40,306 nt of DNA, from positions 1 to 40,306 of the forward strand of contig JBLWVX010000022.1 of assembly GCA_048268245.1 (NCBI GenBank), read 5' to 3'. The notes under the pieces are model-generated. The model searched no databases, was not told where the DNA came from, and saw only the letters and a list, made by a program, of their open reading frames with translations. This DNA comes from Arcobacteraceae bacterium. Its GTDB lineage: Bacteria; Campylobacterota; Campylobacteria; Campylobacterales; Arcobacteraceae. A program made the position numbers and the translations under genes. This document shows positions 30,637 to 40,125 of the stretch, in pieces (the first letter of the stretch is position 1; the number at the start of each line of letters is the position of its first letter).

Positions 30637-31617
30637 TTAGATTGGTAAAACTCTTAAGTTTTCATCAATTTTTTGTTGTAATACAGACTCAATTGCATAT
30701 AATGTTCCAGTACTTCCTGAAGAACATCCTGAACATGCACCCAAGTATCTGATATATAAGTCATAGTGAGGTAAGTTTTCTTTAATATCAATAATTTCCA
30801 TGTTACCACCATCCATAGCTAACATTGGTCTAATTTCTTCATCTAAGATTGTATCAATAGCTTTAATTCTTTGAACTAAAGTCATTTTATCAAATGATAA
30901 TGAACCATCAGCACTTGCATCAGCAGCTGTTTTTAATTTTTCTTCTTCCATAGCAGCTCTAGTGTCTTTTAAAATATCTACTAAATAAATATCTTTTTCT
31001 TCATGACCACCTGGCTTAATACATGATTTACAGAAAGCTCCAGCTTTTGTATAATCAGTAATCTCTTCAACAGTTTTTAAATCATTTAATTTAATAACTT
31101 CTTTAATTGTAGCTAATGTAACTCTAGCACATTCACAGATAATTTCTTCTTCTTCAAAAGATTCCATATCTACACCTTTGTACTCACCTGCAGCTTTTTT
31201 AATAACATCATAAGCCATTACAGAACAGTGCATTTTTTGAGGTGGAACAGCAGGAGTATCTGGATTATCTCTTAAAGCATGTTCAACATCAATATTTGTA
31301 ATTTTTACAGCTTCATCTACAGTCTTACCAACACATAATTCAGCCATAACATCAGAAGATGCAATTGCAGTACCACAACCAAAAGATTTAAACTTAGATT
31401 CTAAGATTTTGTCATTAGACTCATCAACTGCCCAATATAATCTTACTGCATCACCACATGATTCAGCTCCAAAGTCAGCAATAATTAATTTTGCATTTAA
31501 CTCTTTTGCTCTCTCTTCTGTAATCTCACCTTGGTGTTGTGGATTGTTCATTCTATTTACTACTTCGTTTGAGTACTCATCCCAAATTGAACCGCTAATT
31601 AAATCATTTTTAGCCAT
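30637..31617 (-). CDS. nifU: Fe-S scaffold NifU (three domains)
   Basis: IscU-like SCGD, FGCGTAIASS, KMHCS; central CEC...CKSC [2Fe-2S]; Nfu-like DGG...GACSGC. Confidence 0.95.
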   Translation of the reverse strand: MAKNDLISGSIWDEYSNEVVNRMNNPQHQGEITEERAKELNAKLIIADFGAESCGDAVRLYWAVDESNDKILESKFKSFGCGTAIASSDVMAELCVGKTVDEAVKITNIDVEHALRDNPDTPAVPPQKMHCSVMAYDVIKKAAGEYKGVDMESFEEEEIICECARVTLATIKEVIKLNDLKTVEEITDYTKAGAFCKSCIKPGGHEEKDIYLVDILKDTRAAMEEEKLKTAADASADGSLSFDKMTLVQRIKAIDTILDEEIRPMLAMDGGNMEIIDIKENLPHYDLYIRYLGACSGCSSGSTGTLYAIESVLQQKIDENLRVLPI

Positions 31618-31661
31618 TTTATTATCCTTTTATTATTCTTTTTTATATTTATTTGTATCTA

Positions 31662-32879
<1,218 letters not shown>

Positions 32880-32882
32880 TTA

Positions 32883-32897
32883 TGATAATAACTATCA
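32883..32897. promoter_or_regulatory. Fur-box-like 7-1-7 site upstream of nifS
   Basis: TGATAAT-A-ACTATCA, one mismatch to TGATAAT-N-ATTATCA. Confidence 0.5.
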
Positions 32898-32948
32898 ATT
32901 TTAATTATAATTATTATTTATATTTCTTTTTATTTTTTGTATTCTATT

Positions 32949-32986
32949 CTAAATAGGATAAAATTTGTCTTAATTAAAGAATATCA
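32949..32986 (-). promoter_or_regulatory. nifSU extended -10 plus IscR/Rrf2-like operator
   Basis: Minus strand TGATATTCTTTAATTAAGACAAATTTTATCCTATTTAG, 33/38 identical to the element upstream of sufB. Confidence 0.7.
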
Positions 32987-33160
32987 ATAAATTTTATTCC
33001 ATTTTGTAACAAAAAACTGCAATAAATACTATATTTTTAGTTTCTTTTTTAAAAATTTCGCGCATATTATATTGTAATAATGATAAATTCTACAAATATA
33101 AATAAAGAAATGTTAAGTAAAGAGTAGAGATAATTAAAAAATTTTTATTTAAGGAAATAT

Positions 33161-33979
33161 ATGAAAAATAAACTATTACTACTTATTACACTATTTACTG
33201 CTGTACTGTTTTCAGCTTGTGATAATAAAACACAAAACAACGAAGAAATAAAAGAACCTAAAAAAGAGGTTTTAAAAGTTGGAATGGAACTTGCATACCC
33301 TCCTTTTGAAATGAGCGATATAGATGGTAATCCTCAAGGTGTATCTGTTGACTTTGCCAAAAAGTTAGGGGAACATTTAGGAAGAGAAGTTGTTATTGAA
33401 AATACTGCATGGGCTGGATTAATCCCATCACTTAAAACAGAAAAGATTGATTTAATCATCTCTTCTATGACAATAACAGAAGAGAGAAAAAAATCAATTG
33501 ATTTTTCAATTCCTTATGCGCAATCATCTTTAGCTATCTTAGCAAATAAAGAATCTGGTGTTACTTCAATTGATGAATTAAATGTTTCAGGCAAAAAGAT
33601 TGCAGTAAAAAAAGGTTCAACAGGACATGTTTATGCAACAAAAAATCTTAAAAATGCAGAAATTTTAGTATTTGATAAAGAAAATGCTTGTGTACTAGAA
33701 GTAGTTCAAGGTAAAGCAGATGGTTTTTTATATGATCAATTAACTATATATAAAAACTTTGTACAACATAAAGATACAACAGTTGCTCTTTTAAAACCTT
33801 TTCAAAAAGATTTTGAATACTGGGGTGTTGCTTTAAGAAAAAACGACCCTTTAAAAACAAAAGTTAATGACTTTATAAAAGAAGCAAAAGCAAATGGAAC
33901 ATTTGATGAATTTGCTAATAAGCACTTAAAAGAAGCAAAAGCTACTTTTGATGAACTTAATATTCCATTCTTTTTCTAG
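33161..33979 (+). CDS. Polar amino-acid ABC transporter substrate-binding lipoprotein
   Basis: Lipobox LFSAC; YPPFE, LIPSL...IDLIISSMTITEERKKSIDFSIPY (SBP_bac_3). Confidence 0.93.
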   Translation: MKNKLLLLITLFTAVLFSACDNKTQNNEEIKEPKKEVLKVGMELAYPPFEMSDIDGNPQGVSVDFAKKLGEHLGREVVIENTAWAGLIPSLKTEKIDLIISSMTITEERKKSIDFSIPYAQSSLAILANKESGVTSIDELNVSGKKIAVKKGSTGHVYATKNLKNAEILVFDKENACVLEVVQGKADGFLYDQLTIYKNFVQHKDTTVALLKPFQKDFEYWGVALRKNDPLKTKVNDFIKEAKANGTFDEFANKHLKEAKATFDELNIPFFF

Positions 33980-33988
33980 GACTGTCCT

Positions 33989-34777
33989 ATCAAAATTCAA
34001 GACTTTTTTATTAATGAACTAAGCTACAAAAAAGATAAACCACTTTCAAAGATGGTTTATCTTTTTAACTTACTATTTTTAGCACTTATTATAATAACTC
34101 CTGTATATATAATGTTTGCAAATATATCTTATGACTTTAACTGGTCACAAGTATATGAGTATAAACAAAAATTTATAAATGGTTTTATAATGACTATTAT
34201 AATCTCATTCTTTGCATTAATACTAAGTTTTATAATAGGTCTATTTTTTGCATATGCACAAAATTCAAAACTTATAATTTTGAGATTCTTTGCTAGATTT
34301 TATATAGAGATTATTAGAGGAACACCACTTTTAGTGCAAATATTAATCTTTTTTTATGTTTTTGCAAATAATTTAGGTTTTGAAAATCGATATATTGTTG
34401 GAACATTTATACTTGCTATTTTCTCAGGTGCTTATGTATGTGAGATAATAAGATCTGCCTTACAATCAATCGAAAAAGAACAGTTTGAAACAAGTTTAAG
34501 TTTAGGAATGTCTAATTATCAAATGTATAGATATATAATCTTTCCGCAAGCTTTTAAAAGAATGCTTCCTGCTCTAACAGGTCAATTTGCCTCAATTATA
34601 AAAGACTCATCTCTTCTATCTATTATTGCAATTTCTGAATTTACAATGAATGCACAAGAAGTTGATGCTATTACATATTCAACTTTAGAGAGCTATATTC
34701 CACTTGCAATTGGCTATTTAATGTTAACTTACCCTATTTCATACTATACTAAGAGATTAGAAAATAACATAAAATAG
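33989..34777 (+). CDS. Polar amino-acid ABC transporter permease
   Basis: IRGTPLLVQ, AYVCEIIRS, PQAFKRMLP, IKDSSL. First ATG is 34052 (no RBS); the frame is open back to ATC 33989, which has AGGA 7 nt upstream. Start uncertain. Confidence 0.88.
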   Translation: MKIQDFFINELSYKKDKPLSKMVYLFNLLFLALIIITPVYIMFANISYDFNWSQVYEYKQKFINGFIMTIIISFFALILSFIIGLFFAYAQNSKLIILRFFARFYIEIIRGTPLLVQILIFFYVFANNLGFENRYIVGTFILAIFSGAYVCEIIRSALQSIEKEQFETSLSLGMSNYQMYRYIIFPQAFKRMLPALTGQFASIIKDSSLLSIIAISEFTMNAQEVDAITYSTLESYIPLAIGYLMLTYPISYYTKRLENNIK

Positions 34778-34796
34778 AAAAAAAGTAGCAAATATT

Positions 34797-34825
34797 TTAA
34801 ATAGGACTTTTTTTGTCCTATTTAA
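34797..34825. promoter_or_regulatory. Perfect 11-7-11 dyad (operator copy; may also act as a hairpin)
   Basis: TTAAATAGGAC-TTTTTTT-GTCCTATTTAA. Confidence 0.65.
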
Positions 34826-34845
34826 GTTCTCTTTAATTATTTTAC

Positions 34846-34883
34846 TGTTATTCTTCAATTAAGACAATTTTTGTCCTATTTAA
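34846..34883 (+). promoter_or_regulatory. suf extended -10 plus IscR/Rrf2-like operator
   Basis: TGTTATTCTTCAATTAAGACAATTTTTGTCCTATTTAA. Confidence 0.7.
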
Positions 34884-34909
34884 AAAATTTAAAAAAATTG
34901 GAGTCTGTT

Positions 34910-36346
34910 ATGAGTCAAAATCAACAGATACATGATGTTATTAATAGTGATTATAAATTAGGATTTGAAACTTTAGTAGAAAGTGATACATTTCCTAAGG
35001 GTTTAAATGAAGATGTTATTAAAGCAATTTCAGCAAAAAAAGAAGAACCCCAATGGCTTTTAGATTTTAGATTAAAAGCTTATGAAAAGTGGAAGAGTAT
35101 GGAAGAGCCTAACTGGGCAAATTTAAAATATCCTACAATAGATTATCAAGACATTGCATACTATTCTGCACCCAAAAAACCTTTAGGTTCACTTGATGAA
35201 GTTGATCCTGAAATTTTAAAAACATATGAAAAGCTAGGTATTCCTTTAGAGGAACAAAAACAACTAGCAGGTGTTGCAGTTGATGCTGTATTTGATTCAG
35301 TATCAGTTAAAACAACTTATCAAGAAGAGTTAGAAAAATTAGGAATTATTTTCTGTTCAATCTCAGAAGCTGCAAATAAATATCCAGAACTTTTAGAAAA
35401 ATACTTAGCTTCTGTTGTTCCAGTTGGTGATAACTACTTTGCCTGTTTAAACTCTGCTGTATTTACAGATGGAAGTTTTGTATATATTCCACCAAATACA
35501 AGATGTCCCATGGAATTATCAACATACTTTAGAATAAATGCACTAGATACAGGGCAATTTGAAAGAACTTTAATTATCTGTGATGAAGGAAGTTATGTAT
35601 CATACAATGAAGGTTGTTCAGCTCCAACAAGAGATGAAAGACAACTTCACGCAGCAGTTGTTGAATTAGTTACTTTAGATAATGCACAAATAAAATATTC
35701 GACTATTCAAAACTGGTACCCAGGTGACGAACAAGGTAAAGGTGGTATTTTAAACTTTGTTACAAAAAGAGGTTTATGTAAAGGTGAAAACTCAAAAATC
35801 TCTTGGACACAAGTTGAAACAGGTTCAAGTTTAACATGGAAATACCCTTCATGTGTTTTAAAAGGTGATAATAGTGTTGGAGAATTTTATTCTGTTGCTA
35901 TTTCATCAAAAGCCCAACAAGCTGATACTGGTACAAAGATGATACATCTAGGTAAAAATACTAAATCAACTATTATCTCAAAAGGTATTTCTGCAATGCA
36001 AGGAATAAATGCCTACAGAGGATTAGTTAGAGTTGGTAAAAATGCCCATAATGCAAGAAATATTTCAGAGTGTGATTCACTTCTTATTGGAAATGCCTGT
36101 AATGCACATACATATCCATACCATGAAGTAAAAAACATGACAGCAAAAATTGAGCATGAAGCAACAACTTCAAAAATTTCAGATGAGCAACTATTCTACA
36201 TAGAACAAAGAGGTATTAATCCTGAAAATGCAGTATCTATGATAGTAAATGGTTTCTGTAAAGAAGTATTAAAAGAGTTACCTATGGAGTTTGCAGCAGA
36301 AGCAAAAGAGCTGTTAAATATATCACTTGAGGGAAGTGTTGGATAA
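34910..36346 (+). CDS. sufB: Fe-S cluster assembly protein SufB
   Basis: [56 protein letters not shown]. Start set at ATG 34910 (GGAG at 34900-34903). Confidence 0.97.
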
Positions 36347-36396
36347 TATATCCAAGACCTAAGAAAAAAGAAAAAACATTTTTAAGGAAATATATA

Positions 36397-37152
36397 ATGT
36401 TAAGTATAAAAGATTTAAAAGTAAATATTAATGAAAAAGAGATTTTAAAAGGTCTTGATTTAGAAATCAAAGAAGGGGAAATCCATGCACTTATGGGTGT
36501 AAATGGAGCAGGAAAATCTACACTTGTAAAAACTTTAAGTGCTCACTATGACTGTGAAGTAACAGGTGGAACAATAACTTATAAGAAAAAAGACTTACTT
36601 GATTTAGAAGTAAGCGAGCGAGCTAATGAAGGTATTTTTATGAGTTTTCAAAACCCTGTTGAAGTTCCAGGTGTAAATAATAGCTACTTTTTAAAAACAG
36701 CAATTAATGAAAAAAGAGCCTATAGCGGTGAAAAAGAGATTGATACAATGGAGTTTTTAAAACACGTAAAAGAAGAGACTGCAAAATATAATCTGGATAG
36801 AAAACTTCTTCAAAGAGATTTAAATGATGGTTTTAGTGGTGGTGAGAAAAAAAGAAATGAATTAATTCAACTGCTATTACTAAACCCTGATTTAATCATG
36901 CTTGATGAAATAGATTCAGGTTTAGATGTAGATGCTATAAAAATAGTTGCAAATGTAATAAATGGTATGTTAGATGGTAAAAAATCAGTTCTTATGATTA
37001 CTCACTATGATAGACTTTTAGAGTTAATCAAACCTGATTATGTACATATTTTAAATGATGGGAAAATTGTAAAAACTGGAGATTATAATCTAGCCTTAGA
37101 ACTTGATGAAAAAGGTTTTGAGGGAATAGGAATAAAAGATGAGAATAAGTGA
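36397..37152 (+). CDS. sufC: Fe-S cluster assembly ATPase SufC
   Basis: GVNGAGKST, FQNPVEVPGV, GFSGGEKKR, LDEIDSGLDVDA, ITHY. Confidence 0.97.
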   Translation: MLSIKDLKVNINEKEILKGLDLEIKEGEIHALMGVNGAGKSTLVKTLSAHYDCEVTGGTITYKKKDLLDLEVSERANEGIFMSFQNPVEVPGVNNSYFLKTAINEKRAYSGEKEIDTMEFLKHVKEETAKYNLDRKLLQRDLNDGFSGGEKKRNELIQLLLLNPDLIMLDEIDSGLDVDAIKIVANVINGMLDGKKSVLMITHYDRLLELIKPDYVHILNDGKIVKTGDYNLALELDEKGFEGIGIKDENK

Positions 37153-38173
37153 TTTAGAAAATATTAATCTTCCTTCAAAATATGATGAAGAGTTTAGAAA
37201 AGTAGATTTACAAGCTCTTTTTTCATATGATTTTAAAAATGTTAAAAGTTATGAGTTAGATATAGTTGGATTAAATTCAGTAGAAGATATAAACAATTAT
37301 GAAAATCCACTATTTGAAATCACAAAAAACTTTGAGAAAAAACAAATAGTTTTAACTATAAACTCTAATATTCCCGAACCTATTTGTTTAGTTCATAAAA
37401 TAAATGAAGATGAGACTTTTTATACAAATTCTATTAAAATAGAAGTAAAAAAAGGTGCAAAGGCTTCACTTATTGAAGTATTTACAAATACATCGAAAAA
37501 TAGTGCATATAGTGTAAATAGAGAGTTTCATATAGAAGAAGAAACAAATTTTGAGTATGCAAAAGTTCAAGATATAAATGAAGAAAACACATTTATATAT
37601 AATGCAATCTTTAAACAAGAAGATAACTCAAAATGTAAAGTTTCAAATTTTGAGTTAGGTAATGGTTTAATCGTAAATAGCTATGAAAATAGTATTGATA
37701 ATAAAAATATTGAATACAATCTAAATGGTTTAGTAAAATCAAAAGATAGTGCAAATACAGCAAACCTAATAAAAACAGTTCATAATAATGAAAGTTCAAC
37801 TAGTGATATTAACTATAAACACTCATTAAAAGATAGTTCAAAAGCTGTATTTAAAGCAAAATCAATAGTAAATAAAAAAGCCTTATACTCTAAGGCTTTC
37901 CAAAATTCAAATACTATTTTATTATCAAATGATGCAACAATTTTTGCACAACCTCATCTTGAAATATTAATAGATGAACTTGAAGCAAGTCATGGAGCAA
38001 CAACTGGTACACTTGATAAAGACCAACTTTTATATCTTCAATCAAGAGGTATAAAAAAAGAGAAAGCATATGATATGCTTTTAAACGCTTTTGAGGGACA
38101 AATATATGATAATATAGACGATGAACTAATAAAAGAGTTTATCGATTCATATGAAAGGGATAGATATGTTTAA
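37139..38173 (+). CDS. sufD: Fe-S cluster assembly protein SufD
   Basis: PHLEILIDELEASHGAT, LLYLQSRGI; located between sufC and sufS. Confidence 0.9.
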   Translation: MRISDLENINLPSKYDEEFRKVDLQALFSYDFKNVKSYELDIVGLNSVEDINNYENPLFEITKNFEKKQIVLTINSNIPEPICLVHKINEDETFYTNSIKIEVKKGAKASLIEVFTNTSKNSAYSVNREFHIEEETNFEYAKVQDINEENTFIYNAIFKQEDNSKCKVSNFELGNGLIVNSYENSIDNKNIEYNLNGLVKSKDSANTANLIKTVHNNESSTSDINYKHSLKDSSKAVFKAKSIVNKKALYSKAFQNSNTILLSNDATIFAQPHLEILIDELEASHGATTGTLDKDQLLYLQSRGIKKEKAYDMLLNAFEGQIYDNIDDELIKEFIDSYERDRYV

Positions 38174-39347
38174 AAAAGATTTTCCATATTTTCAAAACTC
38201 AGATATTATATATTTAGATAATGCAGCTACAACACAAAAACCAAAAGAAGTTGTTAATTCTCAAATTGAGTATTACGAACACTACTGTTCGAATACTCAT
38301 AGAAGTAATTTTGGTCATGCCAATAAAGCAACTCAGAACTTTGAAAATGCAAGAAAAGTATTAAAAGAGTTTATTCATGCTTCAAAAAATGAAGAGCTTA
38401 TTTTTACAAAAGGTGTAAGTGAATCTATAAATTTTATAGCCGAGTCTTTTGCAAAAGATTTTAAAACTGTAATTATTTCTTCACTAGAACACCACTCAAA
38501 TATAGTTCCTTGGCATATACAAGGAAGAACTTTGGGAAATGGATTAGAAGTTGTTAGATGTGATGAGAACCTCAGTTTTGATTTTGCTCATTTTGAAGAG
38601 TTATTAAAAAACAATCCAAATGCTTTTGTATCAGTGACTCATATTTCAAATGCCTTTGGAAAAATCCACGATATAAAAGCTATTTGTGAATTAGCGCATA
38701 AATATGAAGCTGTAGTTATGATAGATGGAGCACAAAGTTTAGCTCACATGAAAGTAGATATAAAAGATATAGATGCTGATTTTTTTGCTATTTCTGCACA
38801 TAAAACTTTTGGACCAACAGGTGTTGGAGCTATTTATGTAAAAGAGAAATATCTAAAAGATTTAAAACCTTATCAAACAGGAGGAGCAACTATAGACCAA
38901 GTTGATTTTGAAAAATCAACTCTACTTGATGCCCCTTATAAATTTGAAGCAGGTACTCAAAATATTGCTGGAATCATAGGTTTTGCAGCAGCAATTGAAT
39001 ATCTAAATCATGTTGGATATGAAAATATCGAAGCCATTGAAAAAGATGTGTATCAATATTTAGATGAAGAACTTAGAAAAATTCCTGATATTGAGTTTTA
39101 CAATGATATACAAGACTCTATTGGAAGTAGAAGCTTTAATATTAAAGGTTTAATTCATGATGATGTTGGTATTTTAGTAGATAAAATGAAAATAGCATTA
39201 AGAGTTGGACACCACTGTGCACAACCTATTATGAAGCAACTAGGTATCAAAGGAACTATTAGGGTTTCACTTGCATTTTATAATGATTATAAAGATGTAG
39301 ATGCCTTAATAATTGCACTTAAAAAAGCTATTAGCATGTTGAAATAA
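38166..39347 (+). CDS. sufS: Cysteine desulfurase SufS (group II)
   Basis: YLDNAATTQKP, EHHSNIVPW, DGAQ, SAHKTFGPTG, FEAGT, RVGHHCAQP. Start set at ATG 38166 (AGGGA RBS). Confidence 0.95.
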   Translation: MFKKDFPYFQNSDIIYLDNAATTQKPKEVVNSQIEYYEHYCSNTHRSNFGHANKATQNFENARKVLKEFIHASKNEELIFTKGVSESINFIAESFAKDFKTVIISSLEHHSNIVPWHIQGRTLGNGLEVVRCDENLSFDFAHFEELLKNNPNAFVSVTHISNAFGKIHDIKAICELAHKYEAVVMIDGAQSLAHMKVDIKDIDADFFAISAHKTFGPTGVGAIYVKEKYLKDLKPYQTGGATIDQVDFEKSTLLDAPYKFEAGTQNIAGIIGFAAAIEYLNHVGYENIEAIEKDVYQYLDEELRKIPDIEFYNDIQDSIGSRSFNIKGLIHDDVGILVDKMKIALRVGHHCAQPIMKQLGIKGTIRVSLAFYNDYKDVDALIIALKKAISMLK

Positions 39348-39358
39348 GAGGATATAAG

Positions 39359-39769
39359 ATGAGTAATATAGAAGCTAGAGTTGAAGAAATAAAAGAGGAT
39401 TTAGAGTTCTTTGAAGATGAATTACAAAAATATGAATACATTATTGACTTAGGTAAAAAGTTAGAACCATTAGATGAAGAACATAAAACTCCAGAAAACT
39501 TAGTACATGGTTGTACTTCACAAGTTTGGCTTATTTGTGAGCAAAAAGATGGGAAACTATATTTTTATGGAACAAGTGATGCAATAATTGTAAAAGGTTT
39601 AGTTTATATGATTTTACAAATTTTCTCTGATTCAACTATAGAAGAGTTAAAAGAGGTTGACATGGATATTATTCATGAACTACAATTAGCTGAAGTTATT
39701 ACACCAAATAGACAAAGTGGAGTAATAGGAATGATAAAAAAAATAAAAGAGTTTGCACAAAATGCTTAA
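39359..39769 (+). CDS. sufE: Sulfur acceptor SufE
   Basis: YEYIIDLGKKL, VHGCTSQVWL, SDAIIVKGL, TPNRQSG. Confidence 0.95.
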   Translation: MSNIEARVEEIKEDLEFFEDELQKYEYIIDLGKKLEPLDEEHKTPENLVHGCTSQVWLICEQKDGKLYFYGTSDAIIVKGLVYMILQIFSDSTIEELKEVDMDIIHELQLAEVITPNRQSGVIGMIKKIKEFAQNA

Positions 39770-39780
39770 AGGAAAGATTT

Positions 39781-40125
39781 ATGTCATTATTTGAAAATAA
39801 AGAAATTATTGAAGAAAAAATTATCAAAAATTTAAAGAATGTATTTGATCCAGAAATTCCTGTAAATGTTTATGACTTAGGATTAATTTATGGAATAGAT
39901 TTTGAAGAGAAAGGAAACTATTTACACTGTAATGTTCTAATGACACTTACAAGCCCTGCTTGTCCAGTTGCAGAAAGTCTTGTAGAACAAGTAAAATATG
40001 TAACACTAGCCGTTGATGAAGTAGATGAAGCAAAAGTAAACCTTACATTTAATCCTCCTTGGTCAAAAGACTTAATGAGTGAAGAAGGAAGAGAAATAAT
40101 GGAAGCCTCTGGGGCAGTTATTTAA
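39781..40125 (+). CDS. sufT: DUF59/SufT Fe-S maturation protein
   Basis: VFDPEIPVNVYDLGLIY, MTLTSPACP, FNPPW. Confidence 0.88.
   Translation: MSLFENKEIIEEKIIKNLKNVFDPEIPVNVYDLGLIYGIDFEEKGNYLHCNVLMTLTSPACPVAESLVEQVKYVTLAVDEVDEAKVNLTFNPPWSKDLMSEEGREIMEASGAVI

Follow-up and report, generated by a model that had tools for sequence, protein, structure and literature searches.

The window analysed here, a stretch of 40,306 nucleotides, is contig C22 of a 2.68-Mb Arcobacteraceae genome of 28% G+C, and it carries the genes of two iron-sulfur (Fe-S) cluster assembly systems, NIF and SUF, which are oriented divergently on either side of a pair of amino-acid ATP-binding cassette (ABC) transporter genes. 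One copy of a 29-bp palindrome, TTAAATAGGAC-N7-GTCCTATTTAA, lies upstream of nifS and two lie upstream of sufB (Table 1), and it is with this palindrome, with its distribution in related genomes and with the protein that may bind it, that we are concerned. As we argue below, the palindrome is, on comparative grounds, a real and widely conserved regulator-binding site, and the three copies in the window are probably operators for one dimeric repressor of the Rrf2 family.

Table 1. Genes, operators and promoter elements of the nif-suf region (window coordinates)
Feature	Position	Strand	Remarks
nifS-nifU operon	30637-32861	minus	Pfam and NCBIfam matches
nifU	30637-31617	minus	Pfam/NCBIfam match
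nifS	31662-32861	minus	TIGR03403 nifS_epsilon equivalog, 648 bits against a cut-off of 588
Fur-type 7-1-7 palindrome, TGATAAT-A-ACTATCA	32883-32897		nifS leader, 22-36 nt before the ATG
Predicted nifS -10, TAGAAT	32941-32946	minus	2 nt downstream of the operator
nifS operator (predicted)	32949-32977	minus	gene strand TTAATTAAGAC-AAATTTT-ATCCTATTTAG
Element TGATATTCT, proposed nifS extended -10	32978-32986	minus	not conserved
Half-site-like AAATGGAATAAAATTT	32989-33004	minus	11 bp upstream of the nifS operator
Amino-acid ABC transporter genes (SBP_bac_3 binding protein and permease)	33161-34777	plus	between nifS and sufB
Distal sufB operator (predicted), perfect palindrome	34797-34825	plus	about -64 to -36 from the predicted sufB start
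sufB extended -10, TGTTATTCT	34846-34854	plus	TGnTAnnnT conserved
Proximal sufB operator (predicted)	34855-34883	plus	TCAATTAAGAC-AATTTTT-GTCCTATTTAA; ends 26 nt before the ATG
sufB, sufC, sufD, sufS, sufE and FeS_assembly_P (SufT-like) gene, one operon	34910-40125	plus	Pfam matches and reading-frame coordinates; sufB ATG at 34910

An initial annotation of the window had described a duplicated 38-bp module, made of an extended -10-like element followed at once by a dyad, with 33 positions identical between nifS and sufB. Base-by-base comparison of the nifS copy (the reverse complement of 32949-32986, TGATATTCTTTAATTAAGACAAATTTTATCCTATTTAG) with the sufB copy (34846-34883, TGTTATTCTTCAATTAAGACAATTTTTGTCCTATTTAA) confirms both the positions and the identity, finding five differences. 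The third copy is indeed the perfect palindrome that had been reported (TTAAATAGGAC-T7-GTCCTATTTAA), and its centre, at 34811, lies exactly 58 bp from that of the proximal sufB copy, at 34869. A repeat search recovered the similarity of the two leaders as a 45-nt inverted pair (32947-32991 and 34841-34885, with 87% complementarity) and grouped the three dyads as one three-copy direct family, and a pattern search of the window gave two matches at three mismatches or fewer, against 0.00 in 100 shuffles. Next to the nifS operator there is also a half-site-like sequence (Table 1), and 'GTTAC...GGAATAAAA' is found at the same place in several relatives.

The palindrome is not a random feature of the genome. 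A whole-genome scan returned 2, 4, 8 and 14 matches with at most two, three, four and five mismatches, respectively, where 0, 0, 0.4 and 5.8 are expected (means of ten second-order Markov genomes). A position weight matrix (PWM) trained on ten sites of this genome found two further strong sites, and the scores split sharply, 12 sites reaching at least 23 and the next two 17.8 and 16.7. The strong sites fall between open reading frames (ORFs) and none lies inside a long one, with two edge cases: C34:2454, which forms an extended hairpin and reaches into the final codons of a sensor-kinase gene, and C12:33451, which abuts a possible TTG start. Besides nifS (one site) and sufB (two sites), they adjoin apbC/Mrp; a tpx-like gene cut by the contig end, and named by eye from a 36-aa fragment without Pfam match; the gene for a superoxide reductase of the desulfoferrodoxin type, with thiL as its divergent neighbour; the divergent pair of a Crp/Fnr regulator gene and a YgbA_NO gene (site C33:14538); the gene for a single-domain globin, which resembles the haem domain of the flavohaemoprotein inducible by nitric oxide (NO; 8e-43); selO; a LysE exporter gene; purB, divergent from an RluA-like gene; and the gene for a 138-aa protein without family. 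The predicted regulon would be broader than Fe-S assembly, including as it does peroxidase, superoxide reductase, globin and ygbA-like genes.

Conservation in related genomes extends this picture. We examined 80 loci around NifS relatives, scoring a site as present when the PWM reached at least 13 within 200 bp upstream of nifS, and found it in 57 of them, in the asymmetric form TTAATTAAGAC-N7-ATCCTATTT. The leader is long in 39 of these loci, which are labelled Arcobacter, Aliarcobacter, Halarcobacter or Poseidonibacter or are metagenome-assembled genomes, and short in 18, mostly Sulfurospirillum; in the 23 loci where no nifS site was found the labels are Sulfurimonas, Nitratifractor, spirochaetes and others. 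In every one of the 29 loci that hold sufB a site precedes the gene, at -32 to -65 relative to the ATG. The double operator proposed for suf recurs as well, with the distal site exactly 58 bp upstream in L004, L008, L009, L010, L042 and L070, and at 90 bp instead in L073. The idea that the dyad is a conserved cis-regulatory site common to nifS and sufB is thus borne out by 57 of 80 and 29 of 29 loci, respectively, and the NifS proteins of the families that keep the site are only about 60-67% identical.

The same holds in five other genomes of the window's family (L128-L161), where a stricter pattern gave 11, 7, 6, 4 and 10 matches and its reversed control 1, 2, 1, 0 and 1, and where all 35 PWM sites fall outside ORFs of more than 150 aa. 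A site adjoins apbC in all five; sufB, a Redoxin/tpx gene, and nifS or nifU in four each; ccoN, and a HAD gene with or without DsbD_2, in three each; a cytochrome c peroxidase gene in two; and a superoxide reductase gene in one. The composition of the predicted regulon varies by genus. The three genomes of genus g2 have sites before ccoN (a cbb3 oxidase subunit gene) and a HAD hydrolase gene, the latter divergent from DsbD_2 in two of them, and the two cytochrome c peroxidase sites belong to one g2 and one g3 genome; in the window's genome HAD-like and DsbD_2-like genes, both named by eye, flank a weaker site (17.8). A loose pattern counted class-wide, with reversed controls giving 0 to 11 matches per genome, allowed a qualitative look only. 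Over-represented, intergenic and kept before orthologous genes, the palindrome has the general properties of an operator.

The position of the sites relative to the promoters differs between the two assembly operons. (i) At sufB the extended -10 element does abut the operator, as had been proposed: TGnTAnnnT ends 0-7 nt before it in 29 of 30 promoters, the distance being only 0-1 nt in 24 of them, against a background of 9% of 25-nt windows, which would place the predicted start, near 34861, within the proximal operator. (ii) At nifS the corresponding element, TGATATTCT, is peculiar to the window (TGnTAnnnT precedes the operator in only 1 of 40 long-leader promoters, and the closest relative, L004, reads TCATAATCT there), whereas 39 of the 40 have a TAnAAT hexamer that follows the operator at a distance of 0-4 nt. 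It follows that the 38-bp module is not the conserved unit, which is the 29-bp operator only, and of the proposal that the operators cover both start sites the sufB part is supported and the nifS part is not, the conserved -10 of nifS lying downstream of its operator. Most likely the nifS operator spans about -43 to -15 from a start near 32934-32936, nearer to the gene than the 32971 first put forward. The nifS operator also contains a -35-like TTAAGA, whose partner is a second copy of TAGAAT that is not conserved; we rejected it because the spacer to the conserved -10 would be 21 nt.

Public reads add little to these predictions. Assembled contigs cannot show starts, and the ends of the nifS-covering contigs from two RNA runs of one study (X4 and X10), at 32926, 32937 and 32910, are therefore only a weak hint in favour of a nifS start near 32934; in a run of uncertain kind (X1) the nifS contig extends to 33039, and the sufB contigs, beginning at 34897 and 34904, are uninformative on the start. 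Other members of the predicted regulon can be compared directly. At apbC and the tpx-like gene the site is followed by TATAAT, in the same layout as at nifS. In the Sulfurospirillum-labelled loci, as in genomes of family f3, nifS has its site past a -10-like element and ahead of the ribosome-binding site. Since each of these layouts makes the site overlap the core promoter, we favour repression as the action of the regulator that would bind it.

Which protein might this be? The initial annotation had placed the regulator, an Rrf2-like protein, outside the window, and indeed no Rrf2 gene lies within it. The genome has two Rrf2-family genes above cut-off, and one of them, on another contig (G000:C2:4614-5012), encodes a 133-aa protein with three cysteines and lies downstream of rpsO, between rpsO and a 348-aa ORF. 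Its membership of the superfamily is clear (PF02082, 102.3 bits against a cut-off of 30, 4e-29; TIGR00738, 112.8 against 73.3), and its nearest solved relatives by sequence are the E. coli IscR structures 4HF0, 4HF1, 4HF2 and 4CHU (E 3e-10 to 1e-9). We aligned its orthologs in 29 rows from 30 loci (L110 was left out, and, with ATG starts only, the first ten residues are missing from three rows). The cysteines and their surroundings, C-x6-C-x7-C-xxWP, do not vary, the helix SFLAKI is invariant or nearly so, and Glu8 is conserved in the 26 rows that reach its position. IscR Glu43 decides which cluster form binds type-1 sites, and the residue aligned with it is Ala in all the orthologs. Public names for close relatives read 'Rrf2 family transcriptional regulator', with 'iron-sulfur cluster assembly transcription factor' appended in some automated JGI names. 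We infer that this protein is the binder of the palindrome.

The second Rrf2 gene (L001:1375-1788, on G000:C12) encodes a cysteine-free protein closest to CymR (109.6 bits against a cut-off of 195), and its neighbours, named by eye, are an O-acetylhomoserine sulfhydrylase-like (metY-like) gene and a cysK-like gene; it is probably a separate regulator of sulfur amino-acid metabolism. It is unlikely to bind the palindrome, since genome G012 has a nifS site and its sole Rrf2-family gene found is the three-cysteine ortholog.

Across the class, the candidate regulator and the motif can be followed together. Orthologs of the three-cysteine protein were found in 99 of 151 sampled Campylobacteria genomes, that is in every sampled family except f2, in which 1 of 53 genomes has a weak match. 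In this same family nifS is present at 63-66% identity in all five genomes inspected and no site scoring even 5 was detected within 1.5 kb. We take f2 to be Helicobacteraceae (Helicobacter-like) and f3, Campylobacteraceae. The ortholog, at about 48-57% identity, is present throughout the 60 sampled genomes of f3, and among five of them tested the nifS site is clear in three, where it stands between TATAAT and the ribosome-binding site. The nifS site is likewise present in G070 (f11) and G010 (f7); in G004 (f4) nothing closer than a desulfurase of 37% identity was found, and it lacks the site, and G014 (f8) had no match to nifS. Before the Rrf2 gene itself, at 20-60 bp, a degenerate palindrome overlapping a TATAAT is found in two families: in f11, with one arm replaced by a TATAAT-like element, at 3 of 3 loci, and in f8 at 3 of 6 loci scoring at least 10, the other three being alike by eye.

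We consider it probable, on this comparative evidence, that the three dyads are operators for one dimeric Rrf2 repressor, with the 133-aa three-cysteine protein as the candidate, acting in an IscR-like feedback; most likely the regulator works like a feedback repressor of the IscR type, without the protein being an IscR equivalog. In the scheme that we propose, the DNA-binding form would carry an Fe-S cluster on the three cysteines, for which their invariance speaks. The proximal sufB operator would cover the transcription start and the distal one the -35 region, and the bound dimer would exclude RNA polymerase at both the sufB and the nifS positions. A spacing of 58 bp corresponds to about 5.5 helical turns, and independent binding at the two suf sites is therefore to be expected rather than looping. 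When clusters are scarce or damaged, through oxygen, peroxide, NO or lack of iron, repression of the two assembly systems and of the antioxidant genes would be lifted jointly, closing a feedback loop like that of IscR.

Several observations weigh against this proposal: (i) The PWM scores of the training sites are circular, and only the matches in other genomes are independent. (ii) The 133-aa protein falls below the cut-offs of the curated equivalogs, the best being IscR TIGR02010 (77.7 bits against 207.55), followed by the SUF regulator TIGR02944 (suf_reg_Xantho; 59.9 against 110.65), RirA (52.9 against 193), IscR NF008110 (51.1 against 275) and NsrR NF008240 (34.6 against 182). (iii) The PWM scan had been expected to find matches at nifS, at sufB and at an Rrf2 gene, and in the window's family the first two were found and the third was not: within 1.5 kb of the Rrf2 gene there is no operator in any of 7 loci, the best PWM score being below 0, so that the usual signature of self-regulation is missing there. 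(iv) The ortholog is present and no nifS site was detected in G028 (f3), in G005 (f5) and in the Sulfurimonas-labelled loci, and in G013 (f3) the site is weak (5.2). (v) Helicobacter has few regulators of any kind, and if f2 is similarly poor in regulators the pattern of presence and absence may not be specific to Rrf2. (vi) The centre of the superoxide reductase site is at about -44 from its TATAAT, which fits activation as well as repression.

A wider version of the proposal can be put forward, tentatively, from the same comparisons: one cluster-sensing Rrf2 protein (C-x6-C-x7-C, perhaps with Glu8) might be the ancestral master switch of the Campylobacteria, a parallel repressor of NIF, SUF, ApbC and the defences against peroxide, superoxide and NO, combining the jobs of E. 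coli IscR, NsrR and part of OxyR, and lost in the Helicobacter-like family.

A first alternative, which we regard as unlikely, accepts the palindrome as a real operator and assigns it to another binder, be it the Crp/Fnr-family (NssR-like) protein encoded next to C33:14538, a protein of the Fur/PerR family or some other factor. The layout at C33:14538, between the Crp/Fnr gene and its divergent ygbA-like neighbour, is one that usually implicates that regulator, and it must be counted against the Rrf2 protein; globin, ygbA, tpx and superoxide reductase are typical of NO or peroxide regulons; and the family without Rrf2 may lack these other regulators too. However, a different motif already fits the Crp/Fnr regulator. 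A perfect FNR-type box, TTGATTCTAATCAA, stands upstream of the globin gene, a near-perfect one, TTGAC-ATTT-ATCAA, stands at the Crp/Fnr gene's own start, and genome-wide eight exact FNR-type boxes lie outside ORFs of 100 aa. Fur-type 7-1-7 boxes, for their part, cluster around two fur-family genes, and the FNR-type (TTGAT-N4-ATCAA) and Fur-type boxes form separate sets in the window's genome. The odd length and GAC-N7-GTC core of the palindrome are unlike both kinds of box, and its degenerate copies precede the Rrf2 gene in f8 and f11.

These boxes deserve a description of their own. The FNR-type box before the globin gene (G000:C5:109474-109487) overlaps the left arm of the palindrome, and on this arrangement the globin gene may have two regulators; the near-perfect box is at about G000:C33 14484-14497. 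The Fur-type palindrome in the nifS leader (Table 1) follows the Fur-type 7-1-7 consensus and has 15 genome matches at one mismatch or fewer, none of them inside a 100-aa ORF; seven are on contig C26, in the neighbourhood of two FUR-family genes and of feoB, a P-type ATPase gene and a flavodoxin gene. In Helicobacter pylori nifS is Fur-controlled, and in the window's genome nifS may be under dual control by a Fur-family protein and Rrf2. Many of the nifS leaders of relatives (L005-L048; for instance L011, L016 and L022) share a different element, GGAATAG....TTGCATA, about 40-60 nt before the ATG, which is not in the window's nifS leader, where the Fur-type box is found instead.

A second alternative keeps the Rrf2 protein as the binder and changes its action, so that at some promoters it would activate, or would act with opposite signs or in different cluster states, as IscR does at isc and suf in E. 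coli. The varied position of the site, downstream of the -10 at sufB, upstream of it at nifS, apbC and tpx and at about -44 at superoxide reductase, would suit such a regulator, as would the Ala that all orthologs have in place of Glu43. Against this, the sufB operator begins 0-1 nt past the -10 in 24 of 30 promoters, a position ill suited to activation, and at nifS the centre of the site is at about -29, between the usual positions of activators. We think mixed action improbable, and retain repression, as suggested by the overlap with the promoters, for the regulator bound to the palindrome.

A third alternative concerns the distal sufB copy only, which might be chiefly an intrinsic terminator or insulator of the ABC transporter genes and not a second suf operator. 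There is something to be said for this. The copy starts 20 nt after the stop codon of the permease gene, and it is flagged by a scan as a hairpin of 12 pairs, three of them G-C, with a centroid energy of -13.2 kcal/mol, the minimum-energy fold of the 71-nt stretch being -13.6 kcal/mol (z -3.1); relatives with a distal copy at 58 bp show an apparent gene end just upstream (by eye), and no distal copy (PWM at least 10) was found in the listed loci where nifS or nifU faces sufB. On the other side, the operator consensus (AATAGGAC or AATAGGAT) is maintained in the arms in 7 of 7 genomes, with no paired drift, the 58-bp spacing to the proximal site is fixed in those seven, the run of T after the stem is interrupted (GTTCTCTTTAATT), and L024, with an apparent gene end upstream (by eye), carries only one site. 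There is only a small chance, in our judgement, that termination is the chief role of this copy, and the roles of operator and terminator can coexist in it. That the copies are a dispersed repeat of the repetitive extragenic palindromic kind, or chance matches in AT-rich DNA, with no regulatory role, is ruled out for practical purposes, in spite of the 28% G+C of the genome and the hairpin at the 3' end of a gene at C34:2454, by their number (only about 12 copies, and 8 against 0.4 expected) and by their conservation before the same genes across families, to which their fixed positions relative to -10 elements may be added.

Some neighbours of the sites and operons may be recorded here. The transporter genes between nifS and sufB have no ATPase gene adjoining, and G065 has the same gene in this place; other relatives have nifS or nifU directly divergent from sufB. 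An importer of cysteine or cystine would make sense in this place. Downstream of the regulon site C19:19024, and beginning 62 nt after it, is an ORF for a thioredoxin with a signal peptide (L162:213-581, about G000:C19 19112-19480), in which the first cysteine of the WCGxC motif is an in-frame TGA (W-U-G-S-C-K); with the TGA read as U, the ORF matches PF00085 over its whole length (2.6e-21), and its product is probably a selenoprotein. Neither Pfam nor NCBIfam has a match for the 138-aa protein (G000:C34:1755-2171), in which a C-x-LGVFG motif occurs twice; its gene is 282 bp downstream of the palindrome C34:2454.

The Campylobacteria are microaerophiles whose central enzymes carry oxygen-sensitive Fe-S clusters (PMC6682613), and in the literature that we searched, subscription journals and regulon databases lying outside the search, we found no work linking an Rrf2 protein to nifS or suf in the Campylobacterota, or assigning its regulon or operator, and no account of the regulation of cluster assembly in Campylobacteria outside Helicobacter. 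The 2019 review of regulation in the phylum (PMC6682613) makes no mention of IscR, NsrR, NssR or Cj0883; PMC12567157, PMC9241687 and PMC10653786 add nothing on the 133-aa Rrf2 protein, and PMC11140963 reports only changes in the abundance of an Rrf2 protein. What the comparison yields is an operator that is now defined, a candidate regulator found in every sampled family but one, and a predicted regulon that can be tested. The circuit is a prediction by comparative genomics of a familiar type, and as such only moderately surprising; if true, it would assign a function to a conserved, uncharacterised regulator in a group that includes food-borne pathogens, and if the master-switch version were true as well, the Rrf2 gene of Campylobacter jejuni would control the only Fe-S assembly operon of that organism.

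How does this predicted circuit compare with known systems? The uncharacterised C. jejuni gene Cj0883c, from a sister family, may be a parallel, as a possible ortholog of the 133-aa protein; it appears as a putative 'RrF2 family protein' in the table of a motility screen (PMC4073491). With RirA and the SUF regulators of TIGR02944 the candidate would share the control of suf or iron genes by an Rrf2 protein through palindromic operators, and it differs from them in that its gene does not adjoin suf. NsrR, an NO-sensing repressor, is likewise an Rrf2 protein with three cysteines, and the globin and YgbA_NO genes of the predicted regulon are reminiscent of it, but the main targets here would be Fe-S assembly genes, and the NsrR operator (11-1-11) differs both in sequence and in spacing from the 29-bp palindrome.

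The closest comparison is with IscR. The GAC-N7-GTC core does have the spacing of IscR type-1 sites, as had been claimed, when set against the consensus printed in PMC3899308; both motifs are palindromes of odd length with GAC at -6 to -4 from the centre, and they differ in the outer arm, which is ATA-G-GAC here and ATA-SYY-GAC in the type-1 consensus, two type-1 sites overlapping the promoter in the IscR system (PMC3899308). Both regulators belong to the winged-helix Rrf2 family, and Fe-S assembly genes are, or would be, targets of both. In Pseudomonas tpx is a further target of IscR. The ligands in E. coli IscR are C92, C98, C104 and H107 (C-x5-C-x5-C-x2-H), whereas the cysteines here are arranged as C-x6-C-x7-C, the third aligning with the position of His107. 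Unlike iscR, the Rrf2 gene here lies beside rpsO and does not head an assembly operon, and in the window's family it has no operator of its own. A further difference from E. coli lies in the suf operon, which here carries the same motif as nifS and, in place of being activated, would be repressed in parallel with it.

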